Positions 5,001 through 42,548 of a DNA stretch of 64,000 bases are shown in pieces. Positions within the stretch are counted from its first letter, which is position 1; each line of letters begins with the position of its first letter. A program made the position numbers and the translations under genes. Origin of the DNA: a virus (taxonomy: Duplodnaviria > Caudoviricetes); the IMG/VR virus record IMGVR_UViG_3300021364_000018, positions 1,260 to 65,259 of that record; one strand, written 5' to 3'. The notes below the pieces were generated by a model, which was not told the DNA's origin, made no database searches, and saw only the letters and a list, made by a program, of their open reading frames with translations.

Positions 5001-5034
5001 TTTTCTCTAAACTCCAGTTTATTTATTAAACTAT

Positions 5035-8000
5035 TTATAACGACTGTAAGGTCGAATTTGTTATATTTGATGAATTAACATAAGAACTGAATGCAATATT
5101 CGTTCTTTTTCTTTCGTGTAGTGGTAATTCATTGACATAGAAGTTTCCTAGTTGTTCTTCTAACTGAGAAATAGTCAAACCTGTTGCTTCTACATCTTCC
5201 ATTAATATACCACTGATTCCGTCTTCCATTAAGATTTTATCTTCATCATTTGTATCAGAAGTTTCATCTAATAGATAATGTGATATCTTATAACAGTTCT
5301 GGAATGCAATCTTATTTAGAGTTCTAAAAGTATGCCCTAGAGGAACAAAAGTATGAACACTCTCGCCTGCACCTTCTTTAATAAGAACATCTCCATTCTC
5401 CATTACAATTCTATCATGGTCTTCGTAATACAAGAATGGCGAATGTAAATCAATCGACCTTTCAGTGACGAAGAACTCTCTATCTTCTGGTACAGTATCA
5501 TCTTCTAACAAAATTGTACCTGAATCGTCTTCCATTAAGATTTTGTGACCATGCAAGTCACCCTTATCAACAGGGTCAAATCTTAAATTGTTTAAAGGTT
5601 CTTCATTTAATATTTTATATCCATCTTCGAGTATGAGTATCTCTTCTGATGGATGATAATATTGAAAAACCTTACCTTGGTCAGACGGTCTAACACCGAT
5701 TGCCCCATATTCACTATCGATTGGGAACGATGTTTCTTTTATATAGTAATCATTATCAGGTGTATCTAAGTTAAGAACACTGATTACTCCGTCTAATCTT
5801 GGCGACCTTTGATTCAACAATGTGACGGACTCTGCTACAGGTGCAATCGGTAAACTTACTCTTGCATCAATAACAGCGTTTGTCGAATCGTTAATGAATT
5901 TTTTAATTGTATGAACATTGTAATGAGCATTCTCATGTAAATCTTTATTCTTCTCATTACCTGCATCACGAAGTTGAGTAATCATATCTTGAGCATTCAC
6001 TTCGTCTGCTGTAGTCCATAACATCAATACTGTTTCTTTTGATGTTTGTGCGATATTATCTCTAGAATCTTCGTTCTCTAATAGATGACCATCTTCTAAT
6101 AGAATTCTATGTTCTATGTCTCTTGTTGATTCTTCTAATAAGACATTGTTTGTTGGGAATGCCGTAATGATAATTGTCGGAACGAACTTAGTAGATAATA
6201 TACCTAATTTGTTATCTTCGTTTACATCGAATCTACCTTCAATATCTGAACTTAATATCTGAGTCTTAACTGCAACTTCACCAAAGAAGATGTGACCAGA
6301 TGGATGAATTAAGTCTTTTACAATTGAACGATAGTTGTTGATTGACTCACCAACTTTAATGATGTATGAATGTGATTGATAAAGTTTACTATCATGTATG
6401 TTAGCAACTTTAGAATCTGCGAAACCTGTATCACTGAGGAATGAATCGTTTAATAGACCTTCACCAGCGACTGTTCCTCTTCCTGTGTAAGGAGAGTTTT
6501 TAATGATATCGAAACTATCACTATTCTCGTATCTGACTTTCTCGTTATCGATAAACATTCCATTTAACTGTTTGTATTTTAGAATGTGTCTTTGAGAATC
6601 ATATGATTGTATTAATGCTGTTGCGCCTGATGATTGACCTGTTATCTGAACATCTTGGTTTAGATTTCCTGTAGGTGTAGTAATCATCATATTGTAATAT
6701 GATGTAGCATCAATTATCGCATCACTATCGAACTCATCACCTTGCGATGTGATTGTTAATTTTTCTACACCGCCGATTGAATCTGAATATGAGAATAGAC
6801 TTGCACCTGTACCTGTTGATACAGTTGTTTGTGTTAGTGTTTTTTGAGTTAAAGAGTTAGAACCTCTAATTGCTTCTCCGACTGAGAAAGCATTAATATC
6901 TGTTGAAGTTCTTTTGATAACGAGTCTATTACTTTTAGACTCTACTCTTATTATACTACCTGTTGCATCTGATGTCAACCCAACTATACCTTCTCCTTTT
7001 TGGAAACCTGATACATCATCAAAGTATAGATAACCACCTGGGAATGCAGTTGGTAATTTTGTATAACCTGCACCTGCGTTTGTTATTTGAACAGACCTAA
7101 TTCTCTGGTCTGTTATAACATTAACAAAGTTTCCACTGTTGAGGACATCTTCTACTTCATATGCATTCAATAACATCTCAGTGCCATCTTCATAGAGTAG
7201 TCTACTTTTATCTGTAAATATCTCCACTCTTTCTCCCCCTAAAAGTGTAGGAGGTGTAGTGAACACGATGCTATCTCTAAAAACTTGATAATGTTCAGGA
7301 TTCTGAACGATACCGTTAATGTGAACTTCTACTGCTTTGTTTACAGCATTGATTGCTATTGGTTTGCCATGGTCATCTCTTACTGCTTTACCATTGAGCA
7401 TACCACCGAAATGCACTTGACCTGCTTCAGCAGTGATTTCATACTGTTCAAAGGCAAGAGCATCTTCTAATATAATCTCATCACCAACAGAACCGATAAG
7501 TGCTTCTGCACCATTACCACCTGTTGCTGAGTTATCGAAGACAATTAAATCACCACCCTCGTAGTTGATACCACCCTCTTCGATGAAAATTCTTTCTACG
7601 CCACCTCTTGTTAGACCTGTGACATTTGCTTTTGCTAATAGTGTATCTGTATCTGCTTTACCGCCTGAGTAATTGATAACATCTTGCATATCATACAAGG
7701 AACCAATTGTAGATTGTTCATGAACAATACCACTTCCTGTTTCAAGTAATAAATCACCTGAGTCATCTTCTAAACTTACAAAGATAGATGATGAACTATC
7801 AGAAGGTTTTGATACAACACCTTTTAATGTTCCGACATATTTTGTCACACCATCTCTATCTACGAATGTGACTTCTCTATTGAATTCAAACTCACCTCGA
7901 TGTTCTAGGGATATCGATACTGAGTATTTTCCTGCGTTCTCATCAATGATGAAAACATTTTCTACGATTGCTTCGGCAGATATTAATGTCGGATTTATAA

Positions 8001-8814
8001 TATCATACTGAATAATCTTATCTGTTCTCTTAGGTGTTCCGCCTGGTTCCATAGTGACGGATACTCTTCTCTCTTCGTTATATGCTGAACCTGAAGCGAA
8101 TAGAGTTTCGTCTATCGGATACTTGACTTCTGCATTTTCGCCATATAGAAGTCGCATTAAGAACTTGACTGATTCAGCAGTACCTTTTTGTTTGTATAAC
8201 GAACCAATGTTCTTTAATGTTAATCTTGCGTTTTGTGTTTCTTTTAAATCTAGTGACGGAATGAAATCTTTTTGGAAATATTTTAAGAACGATTCTAATG
8301 TTCTATCAATATCTGAATAGTCTAATAGTCTGTTTGATGCAACAACTGAGTTCTCTTTATAATTCTTAACTACACCTGTTTGTTTACCATCTCGACCTTC
8401 TATAGATTCGCTTTCTGCAAAACCTGTACCTGATATCGTATCAACTATTAGTGTTAGACCATTAATAACTTTTATCTTTGCAACTGAACCGTTTGTTTTA
8501 CCATAGATGTATTCACCTACTTGAAATGGTTCTGTTGGAGATTCTTGTAATAGTTTTGATGTGTCAATATCAGGAGCGGCAGGGTCGGTACCTCTTTCGA
8601 TTAATATCTTAGATTCTTCTAGAGAAGTACCGTCCTCTAACCTGACGCCCTCTAAATCGCCTTGCGATTCGAGGACTATTATTTCGGATTCTAGGTACTC
8701 GAAATACGCTTGTAAGAATTCTTCAAAGAAAGGTGAGTCTTCTCTGATATGTTCAGGAAGAAGACTCGGTAATCTTGTCGATAATCTATCTACAATGTGT
8801 TTTTCGTGTGCCAT
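5035..8814 (-). CDS. gp7: Baseplate wedge initiator gp7-like
   Basis: LPEHIRE..FL.AYFEYLE, LYKQKGT.ES.KFL.RLLYGE, YQSHSY.IK and HPSG motifs; lies between gp6 and gp8. Confidence 0.8.
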   Translation of the reverse strand: MAHEKHIVDRLSTRLPSLLPEHIREDSPFFEEFLQAYFEYLESEIIVLESQGDLEGVRLEDGTSLEESKILIERGTDPAAPDIDTSKLLQESPTEPFQVGEYIYGKTNGSVAKIKVINGLTLIVDTISGTGFAESESIEGRDGKQTGVVKNYKENSVVASNRLLDYSDIDRTLESFLKYFQKDFIPSLDLKETQNARLTLKNIGSLYKQKGTAESVKFLMRLLYGENAEVKYPIDETLFASGSAYNEERRVSVTMEPGGTPKRTDKIIQYDIINPTLISAEAIVENVFIIDENAGKYSVSISLEHRGEFEFNREVTFVDRDGVTKYVGTLKGVVSKPSDSSSSIFVSLEDDSGDLLLETGSGIVHEQSTIGSLYDMQDVINYSGGKADTDTLLAKANVTGLTRGGVERIFIEEGGINYEGGDLIVFDNSATGGNGAEALIGSVGDEIILEDALAFEQYEITAEAGQVHFGGMLNGKAVRDDHGKPIAINAVNKAVEVHINGIVQNPEHYQVFRDSIVFTTPPTLLGGERVEIFTDKSRLLYEDGTEMLLNAYEVEDVLNSGNFVNVITDQRIRSVQITNAGAGYTKLPTAFPGGYLYFDDVSGFQKGEGIVGLTSDATGSIIRVESKSNRLVIKRTSTDINAFSVGEAIRGSNSLTQKTLTQTTVSTGTGASLFSYSDSIGGVEKLTITSQGDEFDSDAIIDATSYYNMMITTPTGNLNQDVQITGQSSGATALIQSYDSQRHILKYKQLNGMFIDNEKVRYENSDSFDIIKNSPYTGRGTVAGEGLLNDSFLSDTGFADSKVANIHDSKLYQSHSYIIKVGESINNYRSIVKDLIHPSGHIFFGEVAVKTQILSSDIEGRFDVNEDNKLGILSTKFVPTIIITAFPTNNVLLEESTRDIEHRILLEDGHLLENEDSRDNIAQTSKETVLMLWTTADEVNAQDMITQLRDAGNEKNKDLHENAHYNVHTIKKFINDSTNAVIDARVSLPIAPVAESVTLLNQRSPRLDGVISVLNLDTPDNDYYIKETSFPIDSEYGAIGVRPSDQGKVFQYYHPSEEILILEDGYKILNEEPLNNLRFDPVDKGDLHGHKILMEDDSGTILLEDDTVPEDREFFVTERSIDLHSPFLYYEDHDRIVMENGDVLIKEGAGESVHTFVPLGHTFRTLNKIAFQNCYKISHYLLDETSDTNDEDKILMEDGISGILMEDVEATGLTISQLEEQLGNFYVNELPLHERKRTNIAFSSYVNSSNITNSTLQSL

Positions 8815-8826
8815 TAAATTATCCTA

Positions 8827-9321
8827 TTAGATGCCTTGAACAGAAGAGTTAGTTCCGACTACGCTTAGTGGATACCAAACTAAATCTGAATCTGACCCTA
8901 ATGCAATCAATACACATGCCCCACCTGTTGCTAATACGATGTGAGGTCCTGAACCTGTTGAAGTCCAAGAGTTAACAGTGATGTCAACATTTTGTGCAAC
9001 TGCATCATCTTTTCTTACGATGATTTTGATTTGACCAACTGAAGCGCCATCAGCTAAAGTCATTGCAACATCTGAACCACTTTGACCTGTAATGTCAATC
9101 AAAGATACTGCTTCAGTTGCTGAAACTACTGATGAAGATTCGTCTAATGCTTCAACATCATCGAATGCAATGTAAGTTGGAAGATTGTTAAACATTCTTG
9201 CCAAACTCATTTTTTTGTTAACAGGTGTTCCTGATGGATTGTCAACGATGTGTAGTAAATCTACTGCGTTTACATCACCAGCCGCTATCTCTGTTAGAGC
9301 GGTTATTTTTTTATCTGCCAT
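8827..9321 (-). CDS. Small virion structural protein
   Basis: MADKKITALT start typical of fibre/virion proteins; strong SD AGGAGG. Confidence 0.6.
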   Translation of the reverse strand: MADKKITALTEIAAGDVNAVDLLHIVDNPSGTPVNKKMSLARMFNNLPTYIAFDDVEALDESSSVVSATEAVSLIDITGQSGSDVAMTLADGASVGQIKIIVRKDDAVAQNVDITVNSWTSTGSGPHIVLATGGACVLIALGSDSDLVWYPLSVVGTNSSVQGI

Positions 9322-9394
9322 TTTAGTTTCCTCCTATAAAAACCAAGTTAATGGAATGCTACTTACGGTAAATGCCGTAATCACCTTATTCATA

Positions 9395-11266
9395 TTAATA
9401 TGATGTGCTTGATGTAGAGTTATATCCTATACCAGCACTACTTTCACCACTTGAAATGGTGTCAACTTCACCTGTTACTTTAATGTCATCGACACTGATG
9501 TCAATCAAAGAACCTCTGATTGCAACAACATCGTCACTTTCTGGTATCACGGTGAAATCGATTGATGTATCACTGTTTACTGTTGAGGTAAACTTAATGG
9601 CATCAATCGAAACTTTACCACTGGCGTAATCTATTGTGCCAGCAGATGAATCTGCGATGACTCTCTGACCTGATGCGAGACTATATCGTCTTACATTGCC
9701 TGAACCGTCATCATCAAAGAAGTATGTATTTACAGAATCGCCATCTACTTTGAAACCTGTTGATACTAAAATACCACCTGACATTTTGTTATGTCCGTCA
9801 TGTGGGTGATAGAATGAGTTTCCGAAATTGATAACTAAACCTTCTGAGAAATTTAATTTTACATCTTTCTTCTTTCTTAATCTTATGTTTGTTATGTTTG
9901 AAAGAATAGAATCGTTTATCTCGTCAATCGCCTTAACAAGATTTGAATGTCTAAAGATTGCATCAAAGTTGTTAAGATTTGTATTATCGAAATTGACGAT
10001 ACCTGTTCTTACTAATTGTTCTAATTCTCCCTTTGAAAGAGTTGTGTCATTCTTATTGTATTTGAATACTGTTGATATAAGAATCTTGACTATCTCTGCA
10101 TCTTTGATAACAGGTCTAACAGTCAACATATTAAGTTGATTAAGTTTGTTTTGAACTTCTGTTTTTTCTGTTTCAGATAGATAGTCTGAGTTTTGTGGTT
10201 TAAGTGATATGAACACTTTACCATATTCAGGTGGGTCGTTGTCTTCACCACCCCATACTGCAACTGCATCAGCATTCGGATAATACTCTTGCACTTTTGC
10301 TTTATAGTCATTCAATGTGACTAATCTGTTTTGTGATGTATAGAATTTTGTTGCCTTAAACTTGATTGAATCAATTGATTCTTTTTCTGCACCACCTGAT
10401 GAACTTGATAATGTTGTGATTGATGCATTTGTAAATCCGTTAATTGCATCTACCATTGAAAATATCTTTGCACCATCGGCATGAAAATCATCAACTACGA
10501 TATATGTGATATCTATTGTGTCGCCATCTAATAGTTCTTTACCTAAGACACCATCACCAAAATAAATCTCTATGAAACCTTCTTCGTTTTCTTGGGTGTA
10601 AAATACTCTAGTTGAATTTGTAATTGTAGATACATCAGTTGACAATGAAAATTTGTTTGAGAAACCACCTGATGTGACTGATACTTCTAATTTAGATTTA
10701 TCAACTCTTGCATTTGACAAAACAAATTTAGAGTTTTTAATTTGACTATCATATACAAAGGTATCTGTTATGTATTGACCTTGAACTAAGTTTACATTTT
10801 CGTATTTAAAATTCAAACCATCTCTAGTCGGTATGATTGAATCTGCATTTACATAGTTGTATGATACGCCGTCATAGACTGAAACAAAATTATGACCTCT
10901 AGCAAGTCTCATCTGGTCACCTGTAGGGATTGTGCCATCGATGTTTCTTATATTGTTCATTGATAATTCTACAATAGCAGTAGATGCTTTCTCTGATGCA
11001 GGTGTAAAACCTAAGTCTTTTGCTCTTGATACTACATTCTTACGAATCTGTGCTGAATCTAGGAATAATTCTGAAGCGGCGATGTTTGTATTGACACCAC
11101 CGATATGTGATGCATATGCCAACATATCAATAAGAACTGACATGTTTGAACCTTCGAAGTCATAGTCTTTAAATTTGTCTTGACCTTTGAGATATGTTTT
11201 AATATTATCGACTATATCATCAAAGTCTAAATCGGTTGCGTTTATTTGTGAACTTTTTACTGCCAT
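9395..11266 (-). CDS. gp6: Baseplate wedge subunit gp6
   Basis: LDFDDI..LK..F.DYDFEGS, ELFLDSA..R, IYFGDGV.GK, QNRLVT..DY, WGGEDNDPPEYGKVFIS. Confidence 0.95.
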   Translation of the reverse strand: MAVKSSQINATDLDFDDIVDNIKTYLKGQDKFKDYDFEGSNMSVLIDMLAYASHIGGVNTNIAASELFLDSAQIRKNVVSRAKDLGFTPASEKASTAIVELSMNNIRNIDGTIPTGDQMRLARGHNFVSVYDGVSYNYVNADSIIPTRDGLNFKYENVNLVQGQYITDTFVYDSQIKNSKFVLSNARVDKSKLEVSVTSGGFSNKFSLSTDVSTITNSTRVFYTQENEEGFIEIYFGDGVLGKELLDGDTIDITYIVVDDFHADGAKIFSMVDAINGFTNASITTLSSSSGGAEKESIDSIKFKATKFYTSQNRLVTLNDYKAKVQEYYPNADAVAVWGGEDNDPPEYGKVFISLKPQNSDYLSETEKTEVQNKLNQLNMLTVRPVIKDAEIVKILISTVFKYNKNDTTLSKGELEQLVRTGIVNFDNTNLNNFDAIFRHSNLVKAIDEINDSILSNITNIRLRKKKDVKLNFSEGLVINFGNSFYHPHDGHNKMSGGILVSTGFKVDGDSVNTYFFDDDGSGNVRRYSLASGQRVIADSSAGTIDYASGKVSIDAIKFTSTVNSDTSIDFTVIPESDDVVAIRGSLIDISVDDIKVTGEVDTISSGESSAGIGYNSTSSTSY

Positions 11267-11694
11267 TATCGTACCCTACTTACGGTGAAATCTACTTGTT
11301 GACCTGGTAGACCGTTTTTTATTGAATAGAATACTCTGACATCTAAGTTGTTTCTCTCAACTGGTGAAACATCAACCTTTATGTTAAATATTCTAGGTTC
11401 GTATATCTTTAATACCTTTTCTAAATTGTTTTTAATTCTTCGACCAGCACCAACAGTGTCTAATTCGAATAATTGTTGTCTAAGATTACCACCGAAGTTT
11501 GGTCTAAATGGTCTCTCATAGTGATTTGTTAATAAGATATTTCTCACTGCTCTCTTAATTGCATCTGAATCTTTCTTAACTGTAATGTCGTTTGTGACAG
11601 GATGAGATGTAAACATTATGTCAAGGTCTGAATAAGCGTCCTTAACTGCTGTTGTCTTAGAATTCGGTTTTGTGTAATCTCTAGAGTTTGCCAT
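11266..11694 (-). CDS. gp25: Baseplate wedge subunit gp25
   Basis: YSDLD..F..HP, AIKRAVRNI.LT..ERPF.P.FG, YEPRI. Confidence 0.95.
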   Translation of the reverse strand: MANSRDYTKPNSKTTAVKDAYSDLDIMFTSHPVTNDITVKKDSDAIKRAVRNILLTNHYERPFRPNFGGNLRQQLFELDTVGAGRRIKNNLEKVLKIYEPRIFNIKVDVSPVERNNLDVRVFYSIKNGLPGQQVDFTVSRVR

Positions 11695-11699
11695 TTAAC

Positions 11700-11707
11700 T
11701 ATTTATA
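11700..11707 (-). promoter_or_regulatory. T4-type late promoter TATAAATA
   Basis: Exact TATAAATA 5 nt upstream of the gp25 ATG. Similar (A/C)TAAATA boxes at about 5032, 17920(+), 17947(-), 20613(+), 34439, 36229, 39469, 41312, 43804(+), 50444 and 60948. Confidence 0.8.
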
Positions 11708-11723
11708 ACATTCTTAATAGTGT

Positions 11724-13556
11724 TTAATGCCTGAATATAGAAATAAATGCACCTTGTGCTGGTGGATTACGAAATACAACTGAGTTACCAGACATATACA
11801 CTTGTCCTAAACCACCTACACCAAAATTTTGTTTTACACCATCTACGAATACATACAATGACCCACCTGTTGTTGGGGCGGCATATGTATCTTCACCATC
11901 AATTGCATCGAATGTGTTAACATCACTATCATCGTTTTTGAAACTCTCTTTTGAAAATAGACCTTGAACAGTCTTAACATCTTTTTTAGTGCTTTCTATA
12001 ACACCTTCGATATCTGGCATGTTAATATTGATATCAAACTTCATTCCTAGTAATTTAAGAATATCACAAAATGTCAAGAATAGAGGTTTAAAAATTTTAC
12101 CCAAACCAATTGCATTAAAGAACTTCTTAACTATCTTGACCCATGAAAATAGAATTTTCTTATGCCAATTCGCTTTGAAATCTTTTAGTTCAAGAGCAAA
12201 GTCAGCGATTTCTTCTTCTATAGAAGCTGCTGTTGATTCAATCTTATCGCCAATGATTTTTCTAAGGTCAAAACCGAAAATACTGATACCTTCAATAGCA
12301 TCTCTTACAGCAGTATGAAATTCATTAACTTCTTTGAGTAAGCCTTCTTCTAATAATCGTTTTTCTTCTTCTAGTTTATCCAATTCTTCTGAAAACTTGA
12401 CATGGTCGTCCATCGAAATGTCTTTGTCATCTAACTTTTTCTTCAATTCTTCTATTTGTTTGTTTATCTGTTTAATTTTTACTAATTGACCTGCTTTTGA
12501 TGCTTGAAATTTTGCTTTTATTGAAGCAATTCTTGCCTCTATCAATGCACCAATGTCTAAAGTCATTATTGAGATTAATTCACCGATAGGTATTCCTGGT
12601 AAACCAAGTAAATCCCAAATTTCTTTGAATATACTAATTAATTTCTCAAATGCTTTCATATGAGCGTTTTGAATCCACTCTTTAATCTCTGTTTTGATGT
12701 ATTTCCAGACTAATTTTGCTTTTGCTTCAGTATCAATGACTCCGAATTCGCCGTCAAACTGTCTTAACTCTTCTGGAATCATTTTGAAGAACTTATCAAC
12801 CCATTCTTCTCTCTTTTTTTCTAAATCTTCTATCTCTTTTTTAAGAGTATCAATCTTCTCTTGCAACTCTTTGTCATCTGGCGTTGATTTTTGTTGTTCT
12901 TGTAAATCTGATAACTGTTTTTTCTTTGCGATAATCTGTGTTAGATAATTTTTACCTGCAATTTGGTCAATCAACTCATTTTTATAACTTGGCGAAGTGA
13001 CAAGTTTAAGAATGTTAATCGATAGACCCATAATGCTAATTGTAAAATTGAAAGGCACTAACTTAGATACGAATTCTGCAATTTTTGTAGGTATGTAAGT
13101 ATGAAACTCTTGTAATAATTCAGTAAAAGCATCTCTTGCTTCTTTTTGCCAATTACGAACTGAACCTTTTTGCCAGAATGGTGATAATATGTCTGCTAAG
13201 TCTTCTATGAATGCTTCAATGTCTGCAATTGTTTCATCTATCTTTTCTTTAATCTCACCAAACAAGACATTTTCAATATAGTTCTCTTTTGCTTTTATCT
13301 CTTCTTGTATCTTTTTGAGTTCATCGGGGTCATCAATCTTCTTCATCTTCTCAGTCAATTCAGCAATCTCTTTTTCTTTTTCTGCTTTCATCTCTAAGAC
13401 TTTAGCTTGCAACTTTCCTGGAATAGATGCTATCTCATTAAAGGTGTTAATGAGGTCTGCTTTTGTTGGGAGAGAAAAGATGTCACCGTCTGGACAATTA
13501 AATCCAGAAGGTATCGCTTCTTTTAAACTTGCTGTTGTGTTTGTTTCACCTGACAT
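11724..13556 (-). CDS. Uncharacterised helical/coiled-coil baseplate-region protein
   Basis: 610 aa ORF between gp5 and gp25 with alternating coiled coils and amphipathic helices. Confidence 0.7.
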   Translation of the reverse strand: MSGETNTTASLKEAIPSGFNCPDGDIFSLPTKADLINTFNEIASIPGKLQAKVLEMKAEKEKEIAELTEKMKKIDDPDELKKIQEEIKAKENYIENVLFGEIKEKIDETIADIEAFIEDLADILSPFWQKGSVRNWQKEARDAFTELLQEFHTYIPTKIAEFVSKLVPFNFTISIMGLSINILKLVTSPSYKNELIDQIAGKNYLTQIIAKKKQLSDLQEQQKSTPDDKELQEKIDTLKKEIEDLEKKREEWVDKFFKMIPEELRQFDGEFGVIDTEAKAKLVWKYIKTEIKEWIQNAHMKAFEKLISIFKEIWDLLGLPGIPIGELISIMTLDIGALIEARIASIKAKFQASKAGQLVKIKQINKQIEELKKKLDDKDISMDDHVKFSEELDKLEEEKRLLEEGLLKEVNEFHTAVRDAIEGISIFGFDLRKIIGDKIESTAASIEEEIADFALELKDFKANWHKKILFSWVKIVKKFFNAIGLGKIFKPLFLTFCDILKLLGMKFDININMPDIEGVIESTKKDVKTVQGLFSKESFKNDDSDVNTFDAIDGEDTYAAPTTGGSLYVFVDGVKQNFGVGGLGQVYMSGNSVVFRNPPAQGAFISIFRH

Positions 13557-13557
13557 A

Positions 13558-14604
13558 TCATGAATTCAATTTAAGGTCTTGGGCACTTAGTTTGATTGTC
13601 TTAGCAGACTTGATGTTAATATCATCACCTGCTTCTAAGTCAATCTTACCTGATGCATCAATCTTAGTATCATTATATGATTTGATATCTACTTTACCAT
13701 TTGCATGAATCTTAGCATCGCCCAATACTTTGATGTTTACTTTACCACCAATGTATACTTCATTGTTTTTACATATAACTGTATAATTATCGTTAACTAC
13801 TCTATGAATCTGATTACCATCTTTATCAATTTCATAGAATGTTCCTGTTCTATGTTCTAAAGATATTCTTTCATTACCTCTAGTATCATCTAATTCTAAT
13901 ATGTGACCTGACTCTGTATAAAGCGCCTTGTTGAATGGATACATTGGCGTTGCATTTGACTTCGCTTCTTTTAAGTCATCTGACACTTCGCTCATATCTC
14001 GACCTGTGTAGATTGCATCGCCTGTTGAGAATACATTGATGTCACTTGCATCAGTGACTAATGGATAATAAGGTAATGTTTTTTCTGACTCTTCAAACTC
14101 TGTAATCTTTGAACCTGCACCTGTGTATTCTATCTGAACTTCTTTTGGGAGTTGTGGTGAAGTTTCTAAAGATAAAGAAAGAGCATTTGGTCTAGGACCT
14201 GATGGTGGGTTTAAACCGTCATCAGTTCCTTCATAATCAGATTGTGTTGTTCTTCTTGGGTCATTAAAACCTCTGAGTGGTGTCACTGTTCTGGATAACA
14301 ACTCATCGGTCACTGTTTCTTTATAACCCTTTTGAGAGATACCTTGACCAACACCTAAAACTACAAAATCTTGTAAGTCGTCATCTCTAAAGTGACCATA
14401 GACTGTTGTACCTTCAACTATAGAATGTTGAGTTCCGAATCCACCCAAACCTGCTGTTGTCGCCGGCATGATTACTTGCGACCAAGGTAAATCAGGTGTT
14501 GCAATTAATGATTTGTTATCTGTATGCAAACCATGAACACGAACTCTAACACGACCAATCTTCAATGGGTCGTTTCTATCTTCTACTATACCATAATAAA
14601 ACAT
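13558..14604 (-). CDS. gp5: Baseplate hub/central spike gp5 (no lysozyme domain)
   Basis: GIVEDRNDPLKIGRVRVRV.G.H..LPW OB-fold, YPFN...TESGH..E.DDT..ERI...HRTGT, C-terminal beta-helix repeats. Confidence 0.9.
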   Translation of the reverse strand: MFYYGIVEDRNDPLKIGRVRVRVHGLHTDNKSLIATPDLPWSQVIMPATTAGLGGFGTQHSIVEGTTVYGHFRDDDLQDFVVLGVGQGISQKGYKETVTDELLSRTVTPLRGFNDPRRTTQSDYEGTDDGLNPPSGPRPNALSLSLETSPQLPKEVQIEYTGAGSKITEFEESEKTLPYYPLVTDASDINVFSTGDAIYTGRDMSEVSDDLKEAKSNATPMYPFNKALYTESGHILELDDTRGNERISLEHRTGTFYEIDKDGNQIHRVVNDNYTVICKNNEVYIGGKVNIKVLGDAKIHANGKVDIKSYNDTKIDASGKIDLEAGDDINIKSAKTIKLSAQDLKLNS

Positions 14605-16091
14605 TACACTTCCTCAGGTTCACTTGTTTGACTTAATGGATTGTATGATTTAATATCTACACCATAACTCTCTTTGATTGTCTGCATTGTCACTGAACCT
14701 TTATTGTTAATAGGGTCAATGAAGAAAACAAGTTTACCAATTAAATATTTTCCGTCTTCTAGTTTATCGCCGTCATCAGAATCAGTTTTGATTTCAGTTG
14801 TTGGTAATGTAAGTCTTACAACTGAACCAACTGAGATATCACTTCTAAAAGGTATAGTTGCTTTGATAACATTTTGTTCGAATAGAGACAACAATGCTTT
14901 TCTCTCTAAGATACCTGTATCTCTATATTCATTACCTCTAGGTTGTGTTGTTGATTTACCATCAGTTGCATCAATCAACTTAGATTCATCTGAAAAAGCA
15001 TTCGTTGGATTGACCTTATAATGTGTTTTAGATTCCCATGCTTGGTCAGGTGCAAGGTCTACAAATGCTTCTTTTGAATCAGGATTAGTTGTGACATCTA
15101 ACATCTCTTCTGCTTCGTATATAGTTTCTAAATCAGAAGCACGAATTAAAGGAAAACCTGATACATGAGCTGCCTTTCTATCAAAAACTTTTGATATAGA
15201 ATATACATTCTCTTCTTCAAGTTTACGAATTGGGTCGTATGTTTTTAACATGGAAGCATACGCACCATCTTGAACACCTTTCATTGTATTGAACTTTTGT
15301 GGAAACTGATAATCTAAAATCTGACTATTCAAACCCACATCTGGTGCATTGATATCTATCTCTTCTGTATCTAATTTTGCATTTCTTGGATAATAACTAA
15401 ATCGTAATGGAAACTCCATTTCTCTACACATGGTGTCAAAAGAAACAAATCTAAAACTACCATTTAATGTTTGAAAGAAGAACATACTGTTTTGCCAACT
15501 TGCATCTTCTCCATAGTTTGCGTTTTCGGTGCAATACTTAATTACTTTGTTTAGATTCCAATTAGGACAAATGAATTGTTGATTTTCTGGTTTAGATTCT
15601 TCCCAATAATCTGCTAAATCATCTACACTTCTTAGTTTACCAAACCCACCATCTTCTCTCAATGCTTTAAGTAAGATACTAGAATATGAACCTCTATATG
15701 TTTTACTTACTACAGTCTTTTGACAAGTAAAGAATTTTGGGTCTACAATATGAAGAACATAAGACTTTGTTAAATCGTTGACTGGTTGAATATTTGTTAG
15801 ACTGTAGATTCTGAATACTTTATCGATTGAGTTTTCTGTGCTAGAGAATTCACCTTCTGAACCTTCTCTTTGTCTTATCTTCATAGTAAGAGATTCTTGA
15901 CCAACAAGTTTGAAGTTTTTGATTAAGTCTAGACCATCGACAATAGACAATCTACCTGATAAGAAAGGTTTGTCTATCGATTCAAATATTTTGATGCTTG
16001 TTGTTATGCCTGATATGTCAATCGTATCTCCTTCTGGATTGACTATAGTAAGGGCATCAACAACAAGTTCTCCTTGTTGTAAATTGCTCAT
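14604..16091 (-). CDS. Baseplate hub protein, gp27-like
   Basis: Position between gp53 and gp5; I.IFESI..PFLSG.L.I.D, FFFQT..G..F and terminal GKYLI motifs. Confidence 0.65.
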   Translation of the reverse strand: MSNLQQGELVVDALTIVNPEGDTIDISGITTSIKIFESIDKPFLSGRLSIVDGLDLIKNFKLVGQESLTMKIRQREGSEGEFSSTENSIDKVFRIYSLTNIQPVNDLTKSYVLHIVDPKFFTCQKTVVSKTYRGSYSSILLKALREDGGFGKLRSVDDLADYWEESKPENQQFICPNWNLNKVIKYCTENANYGEDASWQNSMFFFQTLNGSFRFVSFDTMCREMEFPLRFSYYPRNAKLDTEEIDINAPDVGLNSQILDYQFPQKFNTMKGVQDGAYASMLKTYDPIRKLEEENVYSISKVFDRKAAHVSGFPLIRASDLETIYEAEEMLDVTTNPDSKEAFVDLAPDQAWESKTHYKVNPTNAFSDESKLIDATDGKSTTQPRGNEYRDTGILERKALLSLFEQNVIKATIPFRSDISVGSVVRLTLPTTEIKTDSDDGDKLEDGKYLIGKLVFFIDPINNKGSVTMQTIKESYGVDIKSYNPLSQTSEPEEV

Positions 16092-16819
16092 GCTCTCATT
16101 ACTTTTTCAAATCGTCTGACTATCGTATCAATTAAACTAGGTCTGATGACTTTGATTTTTCTTTTTTCCTCGTTGATGTTCTGTTCATTAATATCATGTG
16201 ATACAGCAGTGAAACCTGCCTGTGGACAATTTCTTTTTAGACCTTCTGCATTAACATAGTATGCGACACCATCTCTTTCTTCAACTACAGTTGTTGGTGT
16301 AAATGTTCTAGTTGATACTGCACCTGTGATAAGTTCATTCGATTTAAAATCACCACCTTCTATTGCAATTCTATGATGTTCTGGTTCTACTTTAGTGATT
16401 CTACCTTCACTTGATACACTTGTTACCTTCTCACCTAAGAGATATTTATTTGATATATCTGCAACTGTTGTCTTAGCACTAACTATCTCTGCCTGTGTCA
16501 AGGCAACTGCATATTGACCTGGATATTTTGCAGTCATATATCTTTCAAATGTTTCACTATCTTTGTGCCAATCATAATAGTTTTCTATCTCATTAACTAA
16601 AAAGAAAGTCCAATGTAAATCTGGATTACCATATAGTTTTGTTGCAACAACATCTGGTCTCTCACCGTCTTCTATATGATAGTAAGAATAATCGACAATA
16701 GATTCAACTGCTTCTTGTTCTATCTTAGACTTACGAAAAAAGTCTTTGATGAAAATGACTTTACCGTCATCTAACTTATATTGAATCTCTGGAAAGTTTT
16801 GAAAAAATTGACTAGCCAT
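16088..16819 (-). CDS. gp53: Baseplate wedge subunit gp53
   Basis: FF.NFP.I.Y, Y.I.DGERPD..A.KLYG..LHW, NEEKR.IKV. Confidence 0.9.
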   Translation of the reverse strand: MASQFFQNFPEIQYKLDDGKVIFIKDFFRKSKIEQEAVESIVDYSYYHIEDGERPDVVATKLYGNPDLHWTFFLVNEIENYYDWHKDSETFERYMTAKYPGQYAVALTQAEIVSAKTTVADISNKYLLGEKVTSVSSEGRITKVEPEHHRIAIEGGDFKSNELITGAVSTRTFTPTTVVEERDGVAYYVNAEGLKRNCPQAGFTAVSHDINEQNINEEKRKIKVIRPSLIDTIVRRFEKVMRA

Positions 16820-17918
16820 CTACATCACCTCTTTGTGACCTTTCGAATATACTTTCTTCTGCACCATACTCATGTTCGAATCTAAGGTCTTGCGATTCTG
16901 CTTTGATGACATTGTAATTTCCTTGTGTAAGAATTTTGATTTCTAAGAACTGTAATGTCAATTGAATATGTGCAGGCATTCCGTCTTCAAATGTTGAGAA
17001 CTTCTGCCCACCTGTGTAATCAACCTGTGCGTTTGAACAAACAGCAGGTAAGAAACCATCTACTTTATTACCCATAGGTCCGTCAAAGTAAATATCGAAT
17101 ATGTTTGGATAGTTAAAGAAGTTTGCGTTTGGGTTGTCTTCTGGTGATATGACTTCTTCGCCACCTAATATTGATACATCTGAATATGTATCAGGCAACA
17201 TTGACATTCTAAATGTTTCAATGATTTTTAAAACACTCTTTGCCTCTTCTTGCGACCTTGGATAAAAGTCATATGTAAAGTCCCACGACCTGAAAGGCAC
17301 ACCATCTAGTATTTGTTCGTTTTGTGGATTGACTGCTCGACCTGCTCTAAGGTTTGTTAAACCACCTGTCATTTTATTCAGCGTTTCTTTAACGAATGCG
17401 TTTGCCATTTTTTTACCTTCTTCAGCACCCACATCTGCCAAATCTTTTTCTGGTGACATCAGAGCTTGTCCAATTCTTTCTAAACCTCTAGTGAATGAAT
17501 TAACACCTGTTTGTGTATATTGAACTGTTGCTTGTGATATGATTTGGTCTGGAACATACAATGCAATAGAACGAGACTTGTCTGCAAATTTAGATGAACC
17601 TCTCGCTCTTCTTGGTCTAATATCGAATACTAGATAATTTGCAAGTCTATCGTGTATCGGATAAACTATTTGGGGTTCACTACCTGCTGGTAATCTCTTT
17701 GAATGCCCTCTACCTTTTGAACCGTCATAGTTCAATGAGTTTTGAAGACTACTTCTTCTTTGGTCTAACTTCTTTAATGCGCTTTCTTTTGCTTCGCCTA
17801 GTTCATCTAAGGCACTCTCATAGTTTATTGCTTGTATCTGACTTGCAATACCTTTGATAGAGTTTATAGCATTTTTTGCTTTTTGAAACTTCGATAATAA
17901 TTTGTCTATGTATGCCAT
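16812..17918 (-). CDS. gp48: Baseplate tail-tube cap gp48
   Basis: IALYVP, NP..E....GV.FR.WDF.Y.FYPRS.EEA, YPNIF.I, L.L.F.E. Confidence 0.85.
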   Translation of the reverse strand: MAYIDKLLSKFQKAKNAINSIKGIASQIQAINYESALDELGEAKESALKKLDQRRSSLQNSLNYDGSKGRGHSKRLPAGSEPQIVYPIHDRLANYLVFDIRPRRARGSSKFADKSRSIALYVPDQIISQATVQYTQTGVNSFTRGLERIGQALMSPEKDLADVGAEEGKKMANAFVKETLNKMTGGLTNLRAGRAVNPQNEQILDGVPFRSWDFTYDFYPRSQEEAKSVLKIIETFRMSMLPDTYSDVSILGGEEVISPEDNPNANFFNYPNIFDIYFDGPMGNKVDGFLPAVCSNAQVDYTGGQKFSTFEDGMPAHIQLTLQFLEIKILTQGNYNVIKAESQDLRFEHEYGAEESIFERSQRGDVDG

Positions 17919-20626: not shown

Positions 20627-21262
20627 ATGAAAAGTCTATTAGAAAGATTAGATTCAGAATCACCCAAAGAACTTGAAAGAAGAAGTAGAGAATCTTTAGA
20701 GTGGTTTAGAAAAAATACCAGAAGATTAAAGATTACTTCTGAACGATTCTATAAACAGTCTCATCTTCCTAGAACTAACAAGTATATAGATGGTCGTTTC
20801 TACACTTACTTTTATAATCCAGAATACGCCGCTAAATTACCTTATTACGATAGATTTCCTTGCGTTCTGATAATCGAAAGATATCAGAATGGTTTTCTAG
20901 GTTTGAATTTTCATTACATTCCACCTAGAATGAGAGTAAAACTTTTATACAATCTATTTGAGTTTGCTATCTACGAAGAAAAAGATGAGAGGGCACCTAA
21001 CGACCCAGCACTTGAAGGTATCGGTTCAGAAGACAATGAAACAAATAGAATTCGTATGAACTATAGACTTTTAAATGCAATAACAAAATTAAGATTCTTC
21101 AAACCTTGTTTGAAAAGATATAGATACGACAAGATACTCGGAAGAGCATTAGAAGTAGAACCCAAATATTGGGATATCATGGCAATGTTGCCAACTGCTC
21201 AATGGGAGAAAACAACAGCATCATCTGTTTATAGAGATGCGAGACAAATGGTAAATGCATAA
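20627..21262 (+). CDS. gp2: DNA end protector gp2
   Basis: S..WF, Y.Y.P...KLPYYDRFP, FLGLNFHY.PP..R, KPC.KRY. Confidence 0.9.
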   Translation: MKSLLERLDSESPKELERRSRESLEWFRKNTRRLKITSERFYKQSHLPRTNKYIDGRFYTYFYNPEYAAKLPYYDRFPCVLIIERYQNGFLGLNFHYIPPRMRVKLLYNLFEFAIYEEKDERAPNDPALEGIGSEDNETNRIRMNYRLLNAITKLRFFKPCLKRYRYDKILGRALEVEPKYWDIMAMLPTAQWEKTTASSVYRDARQMVNA

Positions 21263-22029
21263 TGGCACTATTAGATAAAACACAAACAACAAAACCTCAG
21301 ACTACACAAAAAACATATGGGGGTCGATTAAACATCGATAAGATTAAATACAACTTTGACCAAGGTGCAAGAGCAAATAGATTCAATGTAGACTTTTTCT
21401 GTCCGCCTCTTGGTATCAACTTTGAAGGTCTAAGAGTATTACAATGTAGTTTACCTGGTCGTCAATTAGAAACACAGGATTTTTCAGAGTATGGTATCAC
21501 TCGTAAGATGCCATTTCAAGTCGGTAATGATGGTGGTGAAGTAACATTCACTTTCTTATGCGACTCGACCTTTGCTGATAGATTTGTCATAGAAGCATGG
21601 AACGGTGCTATCTTTGACGGTAAGGGTCCAGCAGGTGACGGATTGAACCTTGGTGGTTCAGCAGTTAACCCACAGTTTAGATATTACAATGATTATATTG
21701 GTGAAGTTCATATTCAACAAATAACTCATAGTGATAAAGATTCATTAAAGTATGTCTTGTATGAGGCATACCCTATATCATTTGCACCCATGGAGTTAGA
21801 CTCAGGCACTGTAGATGATATAATGAAATTTGAATGCACATTTGCATTTAGAACCTTCTCCACTGAATATGCAAATCCATCTAATTTAGATGGACTAAAT
21901 AGAGGAAGAAGGATATTAGATACTATCACTGATACTCTCGGTTTATTCGGAAGTAAAGGTAGAAAAGCATCTAGTAAAGTTCAGAAATTTAGCGATAGAC
22001 TCGCTAAAATTTCAGGTATATTTGATTAG
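21262..22029 (+). CDS. gp54: Baseplate tail-tube initiator gp54 (gp19-like fold)
   Basis: ARANRF.V, SLPGR, F.YY.DY, L.EAYP.S; follows gp2. Confidence 0.75.
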   Translation: MALLDKTQTTKPQTTQKTYGGRLNIDKIKYNFDQGARANRFNVDFFCPPLGINFEGLRVLQCSLPGRQLETQDFSEYGITRKMPFQVGNDGGEVTFTFLCDSTFADRFVIEAWNGAIFDGKGPAGDGLNLGGSAVNPQFRYYNDYIGEVHIQQITHSDKDSLKYVLYEAYPISFAPMELDSGTVDDIMKFECTFAFRTFSTEYANPSNLDGLNRGRRILDTITDTLGLFGSKGRKASSKVQKFSDRLAKISGIFD

Positions 22030-22039
22030 AGGATAAATT

Positions 22040-22744
22040 ATGGCATTACCAATTCAGGCGGCGCCCAAGTATAACTTGACGCTTCCGATAACAAATAAAA
22101 AGGTTTCATACAGACCTTTTCTTGTTAAAGAACAAAGAAGTTTGTTGTTAGCGAGAGAAAGTGAGAGCACAACAGATGTGTTTGAAGCAGTATGTGATAT
22201 GATTAGTAGTGTGACAAATGGCAAAGTCGATGCAATGAAGTTGCCTGTCGCTGACTTAGAATATCTTTTCTTACAGATTAGAGCAAAATCTGTAGGTGAA
22301 ACAGCAGATGTTTCTCTAGCATGCACAGAGAAAGAATGCAGTGGTTTTGGTCAAGCAAGTATTGACCTGAATAGTGTAGAGGTAGATGTTTCAGGATTAG
22401 AAGACAATAGAGTCGAATTATCTGAAACTCTAATTGTAGAAATGCAAGCGCCTACTACATCAACTGCTCTAAAGATGGAAGGTCTTGATGAAGCAGAATC
22501 AATCAAACCAATGCTTCGTTCTTGCATGACTAGAATCTTTGATGAAGATTCTGTATATGAACTTTCTGAATATAGAGATTCAGAAATTGATGACTTCATC
22601 GAAAGCATGACCGTTTCACAATTTGAAAAGATATCTGATTGGTTTACTAATCTACCGACACTAAAACATGATGTAGAATACACATGTGGTGTCTGTAAAA
22701 CACACTGTAACAGAACACTAGAAGGATTGAACTCTTTTTTTTAA
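22040..22744 (+). CDS. gp26: Baseplate hub assembly protein gp26
   Basis: MALP...P.Y.L.LP...YRPFLVKE, DLEYLFL.IRAKSVGE, ends LEGLNSFF. Confidence 0.9.
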   Translation: MALPIQAAPKYNLTLPITNKKVSYRPFLVKEQRSLLLARESESTTDVFEAVCDMISSVTNGKVDAMKLPVADLEYLFLQIRAKSVGETADVSLACTEKECSGFGQASIDLNSVEVDVSGLEDNRVELSETLIVEMQAPTTSTALKMEGLDEAESIKPMLRSCMTRIFDEDSVYELSEYRDSEIDDFIESMTVSQFEKISDWFTNLPTLKHDVEYTCGVCKTHCNRTLEGLNSFF

Positions 22745-22935
22745 TCGCCCTTTCACATGAAAGTTTAGTGAACTATATCAATACTAACTTTCAGATGATG
22801 CAACATCACAAATATTCTTTAACAGAATTAGAAGGTATGATTCCATGGGAAAGGGAGATTTACATAAAGTTATTATTAAATCACCTTGAAGAAGAAAAAG
22901 AAAGGCAAAAACAAAGAAATGCTAGGAGAAGATAA
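22741..22935 (+). CDS. gp51: Baseplate hub assembly catalyst gp51-like (reading frame lies -1 to gp26)
   Basis: Not in the track. Frame reads LIALSHESLVNYINTNFQMMQHHKYSLTELEGMIPWEREIYIKLLLNHLEEEKERQKQRNARRR*. Possible starts GTG 22768 or ATG 22795 lack a clear SD. Confidence 0.85.
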   Translation, partial: LIALSHESLVNYINTNFQMMQHHKYSLTELEGMIPWEREIYIKLLLNHLEEEKERQKQRNARRR

Positions 22936-23318
22936 TGGCTAAAGAAGATTCTGCAAAGGATAGGAATGAAGTAGAAATTGATTTGGATAAGTATATGGAG
23001 CTTATCAATAAGCTCGATGAACAAGAAGACCAAATCAAAGAGATGCAAGAAGAGGCAAAGAAAGCTGCCGCTCAACTTGCACCTCCAAAGAGAAAAATGA
23101 TTGACTTGTTCCTTGACGATAACGACATAAACGAGAAATCAATTATTGGTTTTATCTCGTTCGGACTAATGACTGTATTCGGTATTACCGATTTAGTCAC
23201 AGCGCTGATGTGGGACATGGACTTGAAAGTATCTGAAACTATATACACCTCATTTGTTGTAGTGACATTGGGTGCATTTGGTATCAGTGAAGCAGGTAAA
23301 GCATTCGGCGGAAAATAA
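22935..23318 (+). CDS. Membrane protein (coiled coil plus two TM helices), possibly holin-like
   Basis: Two hydrophobic segments IIGFISFGLMTVFGI and IYTSFVVVTLGAFGI. Confidence 0.6.
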   Translation: MAKEDSAKDRNEVEIDLDKYMELINKLDEQEDQIKEMQEEAKKAAAQLAPPKRKMIDLFLDDNDINEKSIIGFISFGLMTVFGITDLVTALMWDMDLKVSETIYTSFVVVTLGAFGISEAGKAFGGK

Positions 23319-23330
23319 AGGACACACTAA

Positions 23331-25157
23331 ATGGAAAACACCCTACCAGTTGCAAGTATCGGTTCAAACGAACCTTTAATGGTTGAAGTTATAAGTTCAT
23401 CATCAGATGACCCTATAGCAAAAAGATTAGACCAAGTTGTTGAAACATTAAAAATTGGTTTTAACGGACTCAATAAGTCTATTGGCGTATTAGCACAATC
23501 AATGCTAAAACAACCCAAAGTAGAACCTGCTGAGTTTGTTGGACCTCAACAACCTGATGAACCAACAGAAACAGGTGGGGGAGAAGTTAACACACCTCAA
23601 TTAAGTTTCTTTGCAAAATTTAGAGAACAGATTGCAGGTTTGGGTGAAACATTCTCTGCTGTTGGTCAATCAATTAAAGAAGCTGGTGGGGGTGATATTC
23701 AAGATGGTTTCAGTAAACTCGGTCAAGGTCTTGGAGTTCTAGGACCTATTGTATCTGTTGCAAAAGATATCTTCGAAAAAGTCACAGGTGTTTTTCAAAT
23801 TGTAAAAGGTTTCGGCAAACTAATATTCAATTCTGTTAAGGGTGTTGTTGGTGGTATCAAATCAGGTATCGGTTCAATCTTCGGTTCAAGTGAAGAACAA
23901 GAAGTCGATGATAGTAGAGAAGAGAATAAAGATGCTATTGATGAACATACTGAGGCAATGCAAGAGAATGTCGAAACAATGAGAGAAACGAGTAATCTTC
24001 TCGGTAAAGCAAGTGGTGACGAAGCAAACGAAAGAAAGAAAACGAGCAAGGTATTCAATAAGTTTAACATGGGTATTCTTCTTGTTATCGCCGCTATATT
24101 AGCAGTGATATTTGCATTTAAGAATAACATGTTTGCCGCTTTAGGTCAGATTGGTAAACAAGTTGCACTTAAAGTTGGTAGTATCGGTCAAGGTATCAAA
24201 ACAGGTATTGAAAAATCAGTCAAACAAATCAGTGATGGTGCAAAGGTTGTCAAAGATAAATTTGCTAAGACTGCCGATGATGTCGCTAAAGGTTTAAAAG
24301 CAAGATTCCCAAAAGCAACTGAAGCAGTAAAGAATGCCGCCACTAAAACCAAAGATGTAGTAAAAGGTGGTTTAGAAAAAGGTAAGAACTTCTTTCAGAA
24401 AGTAGGTTCAGGTATCAAAAATGCTGCTGGTGGTGCAATCGATAAAGTTAAATCAGGTGCAAAAGTTGTTGCTGAAAAAGCAGGTAAGGCAGGTTCAGTT
24501 GTCAAAGGTGCCGCTAAAACTTTAATAAAAAGATTACCAGTTATCGGTGCTGTTGTCGAAGGTGGTCTTGATGCAAAAGATAATGCTCAAAAATTTGGTG
24601 TAATCAAAGAGGCATACGAAAACGAAATACCAATCGTGCCTGTTGACCCAAACAATCCTGATGCAGGTAAAAGACCTCTAACAAAAGAAGAGTTCGAAGA
24701 ACAAGAACAAATCTATAAAGCATCTCTCGCCGGTTCTACAGGTAAGGCAGCCGGTGCTGGGGGTGGTGCCGCCGCTGGGGCAGCTGCAGGTGCAGCTATC
24801 GGTTCAGTTGTGCCAGTTGTTGGAACAATTGCAGGTGGTATAATCGGTGCAGTAATCGGAGGTTGGTTCGGTGGTAAAGCAGGTGATAAAGCAGCTACTG
24901 AAATTGCTGAAGCAGGTATGGGTGTTGATAATGTAAATGAACTAGATACAAGTCTAGTAGCAGCCGCTACTCAATACATGAATGCTGAGAAACTAGAATC
25001 TGCAAACAGTGAAATCGCTGATATGAAAACAGAAGGTTCAGGCACTAGTGTAAATGCACCAACTGTTGTAGACCAATCATCACAAACAATCAATGAGAGT
25101 TATTCTACAACGAATACAAATATGAACGACTCTCAATTAGGTTATTCAACAACCTAA
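23331..25157 (+). CDS. Tape-measure / gp29-like hub protein
   Basis: Ala/Gly/Lys-rich helical protein with a TM segment and glycine zipper, C-terminal NAPTVVDQS; follows gp26/gp51. Confidence 0.65.
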   Translation: MENTLPVASIGSNEPLMVEVISSSSDDPIAKRLDQVVETLKIGFNGLNKSIGVLAQSMLKQPKVEPAEFVGPQQPDEPTETGGGEVNTPQLSFFAKFREQIAGLGETFSAVGQSIKEAGGGDIQDGFSKLGQGLGVLGPIVSVAKDIFEKVTGVFQIVKGFGKLIFNSVKGVVGGIKSGIGSIFGSSEEQEVDDSREENKDAIDEHTEAMQENVETMRETSNLLGKASGDEANERKKTSKVFNKFNMGILLVIAAILAVIFAFKNNMFAALGQIGKQVALKVGSIGQGIKTGIEKSVKQISDGAKVVKDKFAKTADDVAKGLKARFPKATEAVKNAATKTKDVVKGGLEKGKNFFQKVGSGIKNAAGGAIDKVKSGAKVVAEKAGKAGSVVKGAAKTLIKRLPVIGAVVEGGLDAKDNAQKFGVIKEAYENEIPIVPVDPNNPDAGKRPLTKEEFEEQEQIYKASLAGSTGKAAGAGGGAAAGAAAGAAIGSVVPVVGTIAGGIIGAVIGGWFGGKAGDKAATEIAEAGMGVDNVNELDTSLVAAATQYMNAEKLESANSEIADMKTEGSGTSVNAPTVVDQSSQTINESYSTTNTNMNDSQLGYSTT

Positions 25158-42155: not shown

Positions 42156-42421
42156 GCAAAACCATACCTCCGTGCATAGTATTTTAAGTCTAAGATGTTA
42201 TTCTCAGGAGTGTAAGACTCCTTATCCATCTCATAAACAGGGTCTCCTTCATCATCATCACCATAATAGACTGATAATACGAGTTGACCGTCTCTGTCCT
42301 CAATATAAAAGAGTGTATCTTCTTCTATACCGTGGGTTTCGAGAAACACCTCTGCATCTAATTCATCATCAAAGTGTATCTCATCGTCAATTACCTCAAA
42401 ATTATAACCGACATATCGCAT
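42152..42421 (-). CDS. Acidic hypothetical protein
   Basis: ORF with SD AAGGA. Confidence 0.6.
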   Translation of the reverse strand: MRYVGYNFEVIDDEIHFDDELDAEVFLETHGIEEDTLFYIEDRDGQLVLSVYYGDDDEGDPVYEMDKESYTPENNILDLKYYARRYGFA

Positions 42422-42548
42422 TTTTGGTTTCCTTCTTCGTTTTTCCCAAAAAAAATTTTAATAAGGGTACCGGTCAGAAAAACAACCCGATGCCTTAACA
42501 TCAGTGGACCAAGGGCAACACAATCGCTGGGACTGTTCCTAAGCGATT

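Follow-up and report, generated by a model that had tools for sequence, protein, structure and literature searches.

In phage lambda, two tail chaperones, gpG and gpGT, adjoin the tape measure gene and share an N-terminus by way of a -1 shift, which Levin et al. in 1993 and Xu et al. in 2004 reportedly placed near the end of the first ORF. The T4 proteins gp26 and gp51, which are homologues of the protein considered here, act in baseplate hub assembly, unlike lambda gpG and gpGT. In T4 the genes for these two proteins are divergently transcribed and there is no slip site. T4 gp26 (208 aa) consists of the PF12322 domain alone, and the 3' end of its gene, GAG TTC TTT GAG TTA CTA TAA, is not slippery. 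T4 gp51 (249 aa) has PF12322 at residues 1-201, followed in frame by a C-terminal tail; on the phrog_150 profile gp51 covers positions 13-280 and gp26 positions 14-235. Citrobacter phage Moon has the same two-gene pattern as T4, and in a 13-sequence alignment Moon gp51 continues beyond the F-F residues at which other gp26 proteins end. The T4 record (L122:7803-8090) also lists an internal product, 26', which is the C-terminal part of gene 26 and represents another route to more than one protein per gene in the gp26 family.

A 2022 paper by Vladimirov, Gautam and Davidson reportedly names gp26 and gp51. According to a passage of PMC12846349 that cites this work (Vladimirov et al. 2022), poly-T tracts in TAC-N genes are known to act as -1 signals in T4-like phages; a passage of PMC10885494 with the same citation says that certain T4-like phages have, in place of this, one short gene alongside a longer one that is a fusion. 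Because both citing passages match the present results, we rate the phenomenon as already known and the locus described here as one more instance of it, in an uncultured marine phage. A preliminary description of this DNA supposed that such a frameshift is not ascribed to T4-like phages, a view that these passages show to be out of date. In the literature that our search covered, no direct treatment of gp26/gp51 recoding was found. To judge from those citing passages, the three stop spacings, the U_UUU_UUA heptamers and the +1 lineage with its own start that are described below may or may not be covered by the 2022 paper.

The DNA analyzed here, which we refer to as the window, is a 64-kb stretch of a 65,259-bp metagenome-derived virus record that is judged 35% complete. 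The nearest named relatives are the pelagiphages HTVC008M and Mosig together with Kyanoviridae cyanophages. The plus strand of the window carries a gp26-like gene at 22040..22744 that would encode a short chaperone form (TAC-N) of 234 aa (PF12322, E = 3.2e-53; phrog_150, E = 1.9e-56). The 3' end of this ORF reads AAC TCT TTT TTT TAA, and within the T8 run at 22735-22742 the slippery heptamer T_TTT_TTT (22735..22741) stands in X_XXY_YYZ phase, with the TAA stop of the short form (22742..22744) immediately 3' of it. The -1 frame extension (22741..22935, plus strand) starts L-I-A-L-S-H-E-S and is open for 64 sense codons, closing with the TAA at 22933-22935. A -1 overlap at the end of gp26 and a heptamer in the appropriate phase ahead of it are therefore both present in the window. 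The earliest ATG, GTG or TTG in the -1 frame is the GTG at 22768, codon 10 past the junction, which has no Shine-Dalgarno (SD) sequence upstream in the window sequence and is preceded by nine conserved residues. On all these points the sequence bears out the preliminary description, which had reported the T8 run and heptamer directly before the stop, a -1 frame open for 64 codons, a gp51-like ORF without a convincing SD-led start and a gp51-like pattern that begins before the first start codon; its sizes of 234 aa and about 298 aa are likewise right as those of the predicted products.

The gene lies where a tail chaperone gene would be sought. Directly upstream is the gene for a gp54-like tail-tube-fold protein of 255 aa (21262..22029, plus strand; phrog_45 'tail tube', E = 3e-24), the equivalents of which in relatives are annotated as tail tube protein or baseplate tail tube initiator. 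Downstream on the same strand is the gene for a 608-aa tape measure protein (23331..25157; phrog_167 'tail length tape measure protein', E = 6e-14), and the equivalent gene in HTVC008M is annotated as a putative tail tape measure. Between the chaperone and tape measure genes there is a single 127-aa ORF with no assigned function (22935..23318, plus strand), which has weak matches only, the best of them to PF23984 (DUF7307, 'Pam3 gp33-like') at E = 0.0036 and under that profile's cut-off. The fusion had been placed just upstream of the tape measure gene; the order is as claimed, but with this ORF intervening the two genes are not directly adjacent. Small ORFs are found at the same position in pelagiphages, and none was seen there in the cyanophages inspected. 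A DNA end protector gene, like the tube-fold gene, is located upstream of the gp26-like gene, and baseplate wedge, hub and tube-cap genes occupy the minus strand from 3531 to 17918. The window gene and T4 gp26/gp51 share a setting in the hub/tape-measure gene region. The 65-kb record, itself 35% complete, gave no match to PF06841 (gp19).

The gp26-like protein is a full-length member of the T4 gp26/gp51 family. Its match to PF12322 (T4_baseplate) scores 181.1 bits against a curated cut-off of 24.5 and aligns residues 9-234 with profile positions 2-218 of 219. The -1 extension would form the C-terminal chaperone domain and is the counterpart of the T4 gp51 tail. From residue 2 on it matches phrog_634 ('baseplate hub assembly catalyst'; E = 3.6e-27), and it falls on positions 238-278 of phrog_150, the gp26 profile, and is found by BLASTP to be related both to T4 gp51 residues 224-249 (E = 2e-4) and, over its residues 4-45, to Moon gp51 204-244 (E = 9e-5, with one single-residue gap). 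The earlier identification of the -1 ORF as a gp51-like domain is therefore upheld as far as homology goes, but the ORF is not the equivalent of gp51, since it matches the tail only and the T4 protein has its counterpart in the fusion as a whole. To judge by these alignments, the 298-aa product would be laid out in domains like T4 gp51, and the 234-aa product like T4 gp26, with the difference that T4 uses two genes where the window has one gene and a predicted recoding event. The gp51-type layout, PF12322 followed by a Y-S-L ... M-I-P-x-E-R tail, arises in the window only by way of the -1 shift. Consistent with this arrangement, the source record holds one PF12322 gene; the complete genomes of HTVC008M, S-PM2 and Aeh1, all of which carry the heptamer, also have one each, and that of T4 has two. 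With respect to lambda, no sequence similarity to the window protein was found, the heptamer differs, and the window protein, at 234 aa, is larger, with additional domains and a likely Cys4 site.

We consider it very probable that a recoded fusion is made at the T run, whether by a ribosomal or a transcriptional mechanism, and we regard ribosomal -1 slippage as the likely means. Most ribosomes would then stop at TAA 22742 and release the short form of 234 aa, which corresponds to gp26 of T4 and gpG of lambda. A smaller fraction would slip one base back on U_UUU_UUU (22735-22741), with both Phe-tRNAs pairing anew in the -1 frame, and would read 64 further codons to 22935, yielding a 298-aa long form analogous to lambda gpGT. 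If the analogy with lambda holds, the product of the tape measure gene downstream would be coated by the N-terminal domain common to both forms, and the C-terminal domain peculiar to the long form would connect the tape measure complex with other tail or hub parts. What the sequences show directly is the anatomy of the site, the extent to which it is conserved and the homologies of its products; from these we infer the occurrence of slippage, its ribosomal nature, its efficiency and the binding partners of the two forms, with binding to the tape measure protein and to a tube/hub protein proposed by analogy. The suggestion in the preliminary description that the locus specifies a G/GT-like chaperone pair is supported by strong comparative evidence: by the conserved heptamer and its phase, by the gap-free homology in the -1 frame and the scarcity of start codons described below, by the composition of T4 gp51 and by gene position.

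Conservation of the junction carries much of this argument. A first look at 15 loci found NNT TTT TTY near the end of gp26 together with a homologous -1 ORF in 14 of them, with Moon as the exception. The full survey comprised 92 loci. Besides the window it took in 11 loci that were named or had been looked at before, plus 80 from IMG/VR, the best of at least 595 there; these 80 were found with a 7-sequence alignment, are 33-99% identical, and include one (L016) that is on the same contig as another (L005). The surveyed loci are interrelated, so the counts that follow describe conservation and not independent events. An in-phase T_TTT_TTN is present in 91/92 loci at a distance of 0, 1 or 8 codons 5' of the gp26 stop. 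The heptamer is TTTTTTT in 46 of these 91 loci, TTTTTTC in 38 and TTTTTTA in seven, and the stop follows after 0 codons in 39, one codon in 46 and eight codons in six, placing it 0 or 1 codon 3' of the heptamer in 85/91. Past the gp26 stop the -1 ORF extends for 53-68 codons, three loci being cut by a contig end, and the +1 frame, used as a control, mostly for 1-9 codons. The 91 extensions (89 of them unique) give a gap-free alignment that starts at the first codon past the heptamer and has conserved positions at 4, 6, 9, 11, 13, 16 and 17. In the six loci with the stop eight codons on, which include Mosig, it is the -1 frame and not the 0 frame that is conserved. Aeromonas phage AS-yj has the canonical layout. 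The junction alignment that had been proposed as a check on the earlier reading thus finds heptamer and -1 phase kept in 91/92 loci. Random phase among relatives together with a conserved independent gp51 start would have told against recoding; the phase is constant in 91/92 loci, and an extension with an SD and ATG of its own was seen in the lineage of one locus, L085.

The codons at the slip site are also more uniform than the residues they encode would lead one to expect. The codon preceding the Phe pair ends in T in 91/91 loci (AGT 42, GAT 22, AAT 14, TCT 10, GCT 3), against a background for T-ending codons of 0.33-0.74 elsewhere in gp26-like genes, and 91/91 loci have TTT as their first Phe codon, as against 0.71 elsewhere. 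The conserved F-F residues account for the T's in part, and T4 gp26 likewise ends E-F-F.

These data bear on the simplest alternative to recoding, in which no fusion is made and the small ORF is translated alone from GTG 22768 to give a separate 55-aa 'gp51'. Current annotation agrees with such a protein: none of the 13 heptamer-type GenBank records that we inspected has a joined CDS, and 11/13 have a separate small CDS after gp26, the two without one being Aeh1 and AS-yj. A start codon is available by codon 4 of the -1 frame in 23/91 loci and by codon 9 in 44, and the +1 lineage and two phages with a TAATG overlap that are discussed below suggest that separate expression can occur. The first start is, however, at codon 19 or 20 in 32/91 loci, where its use would drop 18-19 conserved residues, and in two loci none was found, such that in most loci conserved residues stand 5' of any start codon in the -1 frame. 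In the window itself the nine conserved residues 5' of the GTG include the nearly invariant H6 and L9, and the GTG has no SD. Translation of the small ORF alone would furthermore leave the fixed silent T's and the constant -1 phase unexplained, and the corresponding tail of T4 gp51 is covalently joined. For these reasons, namely the conserved residues before the GTG, the missing SD, the fixed T's and the constant phase, we reject independent initiation as the sole explanation and regard a stand-alone gp51 in the window as quite improbable. The '55-aa gp51' is best read, on the sequence comparisons, as the recoded C-terminus of a predicted 298-aa chaperone. Given that a joined CDS is lacking from 13/13 records, many marine T4-like genomes probably share this mis-annotation; the records inspected include 2023-2025-series accession numbers.

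A more trivial possibility is that the two-frame layout is an assembly artefact, the true run being T9, which would make a single fused gene, or some other length that was miscalled. Errors are common in homopolymers, and the record from which the window was taken is metagenome-derived. Against this, L005 and L006 (99% identity) and L007 (89%) are independent contigs that all have the same T8, and the layout is found in 91/92 loci, including isolate genomes from several laboratories. On these two grounds we set homopolymer error aside and give it a negligible probability.

It is harder to distinguish ribosomal slippage from transcriptional slippage, in which the polymerase would add one U in some mRNAs and ordinary translation of these would give the same 298-aa product. 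The run in the window is T8, which is conceivably long enough for polymerase slippage, and heptamer and stop together give T8 in 34/91 loci. Long homopolymers are, moreover, strongly avoided across the window, which has a GC content of about 0.35. T8/A8 runs number two in the 64 kb, compared with 15.8 +/- 5.1 expected from 100 dinucleotide-preserving shuffles, all of which (100/100) contained at least two, and T7/A7 runs number 17 compared with 49 +/- 9 in shuffles. Because T8/A8 runs are this scarce relative to shuffled sequence, the gp26 T8 is more than a chance feature of an AT-rich genome. The second T8, at 42448-42455, is located, as read by eye, upstream of the ATG of a minus-strand ORF that ends at 42421, which leaves the gp26 run as the only one found within a family-matched gene. 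The avoidance of runs of eight or more elsewhere in the window is thus a point in favor of transcriptional slippage. On the opposite side, 45/91 loci have six T's only, followed by C or A. With regard to the length threshold for stuttering by bacterial polymerase, a T6 run is short. These six-T loci, together with the seven that have U_UUU_UUA, fit a ribosomal heptamer better than polymerase stuttering. Transcriptional slippage also has no need of an X_XXY_YYZ phase, yet this phase is kept in 91/92 loci, a comparison that is confounded by the F-F residues. Overall, we judge a transcriptional origin of the fusion to be unlikely and favor the ribosomal one.

Ribosomal slippage on such a heptamer has known parallels, U_UUU_UUA being the heptamer of HIV-1 gag-pol and the -1 slip site of T7 gene 10A/10B being U-rich as well. 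The T7 site is also mentioned in a passage of PMC12846349. The likeness lies in the U-run heptamers and tandem tRNA slippage, and in seven relatives of the window the heptamer is exactly U_UUU_UUA. The difference is that no conserved downstream stimulator was found in the window family, where instead a stop codon stands next to, or one codon beyond, the slip site in most loci. In the window a local RNA hairpin can be folded at 22753..22798 on the plus strand, 11 nt 3' of the heptamer (dG -11.1 kcal/mol, z -2.35), but it is weak, with 3/200 shuffles folding as well, and is not conserved. RNAalifold found no consensus structure 3' of the heptamer in 91 unique relatives, whose single-sequence folding z-scores average -0.7 (against mononucleotide shuffles only), and a search of 22500-23100 against Rfam gave 0 matches. 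Upstream, an SD-like GAAGGA (22721..22726, plus strand) is positioned 8 nt 5' of the heptamer and might be thought to act as a stimulator, and an SD-like 4-mer is found within -20..-5 of the heptamer in 81/91 loci. We do not claim this element as a stimulator: it is encoded by conserved E-G residues, which T4 gp26 has too, and is thereby confounded with constraint on the protein. A stop codon 0-1 codon past the slip site, the feature retained most regularly, could itself slow decoding and so favor slippage.

The exceptions to the canonical layout are informative in their own right. At L085 (1840-1960) the junction reads GGC TTT TTT CGC, and the gp51-like extension is in the +1 frame relative to gp26. 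Two loci from other samples, L106 and L107, have the same layout and 100% protein identity; a further locus from the search that yielded them, L105, is on the same contig as L085, and the remaining 14 are canonical. Read from the sequence, the L085 lineage has an ATG three codons 5' of the junction and 5 nt after a GGAGGG, and its small protein may be started independently or produced via a +1 event. The lineage retains a T6, from which loss of one U would serve the +1 extension, as could happen in transcriptional slippage; that it has an SD and ATG of its own argues the other way.

Four further phages, Vibrio phage GR28A, Salmonella phage PhiSH19, Vibrio phage D506 and Serratia phage KNP4 (L097-L100; Ackermannviridae or Vibrio phages), have no T6 run. 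Their gp26-like genes end NNT TTC AWN followed by the stop, and a homologous -1 ORF is present. The conserved in-phase T_TTC of these phages might be a P-site slip site. In GR28A and D506 there is a TAATG stop-start overlap; going by this arrangement and that of the +1 lineage, the C-terminal domain may on occasion be produced as a protein of its own. In the PhiSH19 record the gap carries no annotated gene.

Taken together with T4, these variants invite the reading that T4-like phages have at least three interchangeable means of expressing the C-terminal chaperone domain. They would be -1 recoding at a U run with only the adjacent stop as stimulator, in most lineages including the window; a second full-length gene, in T4; and an overlapping ORF that has a start codon of its own, in L085/L106/L107 and the TAATG phages. 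The T8 class would possibly work by polymerase stuttering or by a stop-stimulated P-site slip instead of classical tandem slippage. If the three-way reading were true, covalent linkage to the N-terminal domain would not be essential. We offer it tentatively and hold it to be rather doubtful. With recoding of the kind predicted here, T4-like myoviruses would join the near-universal pattern of a tail chaperone in two forms, and the puzzling gp26/gp51 pair of T4 would be explained as an unfused counterpart of this device, an insight that appears to be in print already.

In the record of Citrobacter phage Moon (L014:1-695) the depositors entered a two-piece CDS that overlaps gp27 and is labeled 'GT-like fusion protein; T4 gp28-like', which hints that a gp27/gp28 frameshift, distinct from the one considered here, has been proposed for T4-type phages.

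From a 79-sequence alignment, AlphaFold2 gave a confident model of gp26, with a pLDDT of 90.5. Exhaustive alignment of this model to 48,161 PDB chains gave matches covering residues 1-87, led by 3fgx_B, an uncharacterised Bacillus protein (Z 7.6, rmsd 4.2, 85 aligned), then 2ob9_B, the HK97 tail assembly chaperone (Z 7.2, rmsd 3.2, 82 aligned), and 3klu_A, B. subtilis YqbN (Z 6.6, rmsd 3.7, 85 aligned), with the Z range of 6.6-7.6 being within the tool's stated background, reachable by unrelated folds. The resemblance of the modeled N-terminal domain (1-87) to the HK97 chaperone is suggestive, given that second place goes to a protein named as a tail assembly chaperone and that most of 2ob9_B is covered, 82 of 104 residues at 11% identity. 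Residues 88-234 have no counterpart in the HK97 protein. Foldseek of the model against the PDB returned nothing at E <= 0.001, and a profile search of PDB sequences gave 0 matches. A complex prediction for the 64-aa extension with the upstream tube-like protein scored 0.00, which is a 'no answer' and was counted neither way. Cysteines 95, 100, 216 and 219 of gp26 are kept in 67, 43, 60 and 60 of the 79 aligned sequences, respectively, a pattern that hints at a metal-binding site that has been lost in some lineages.
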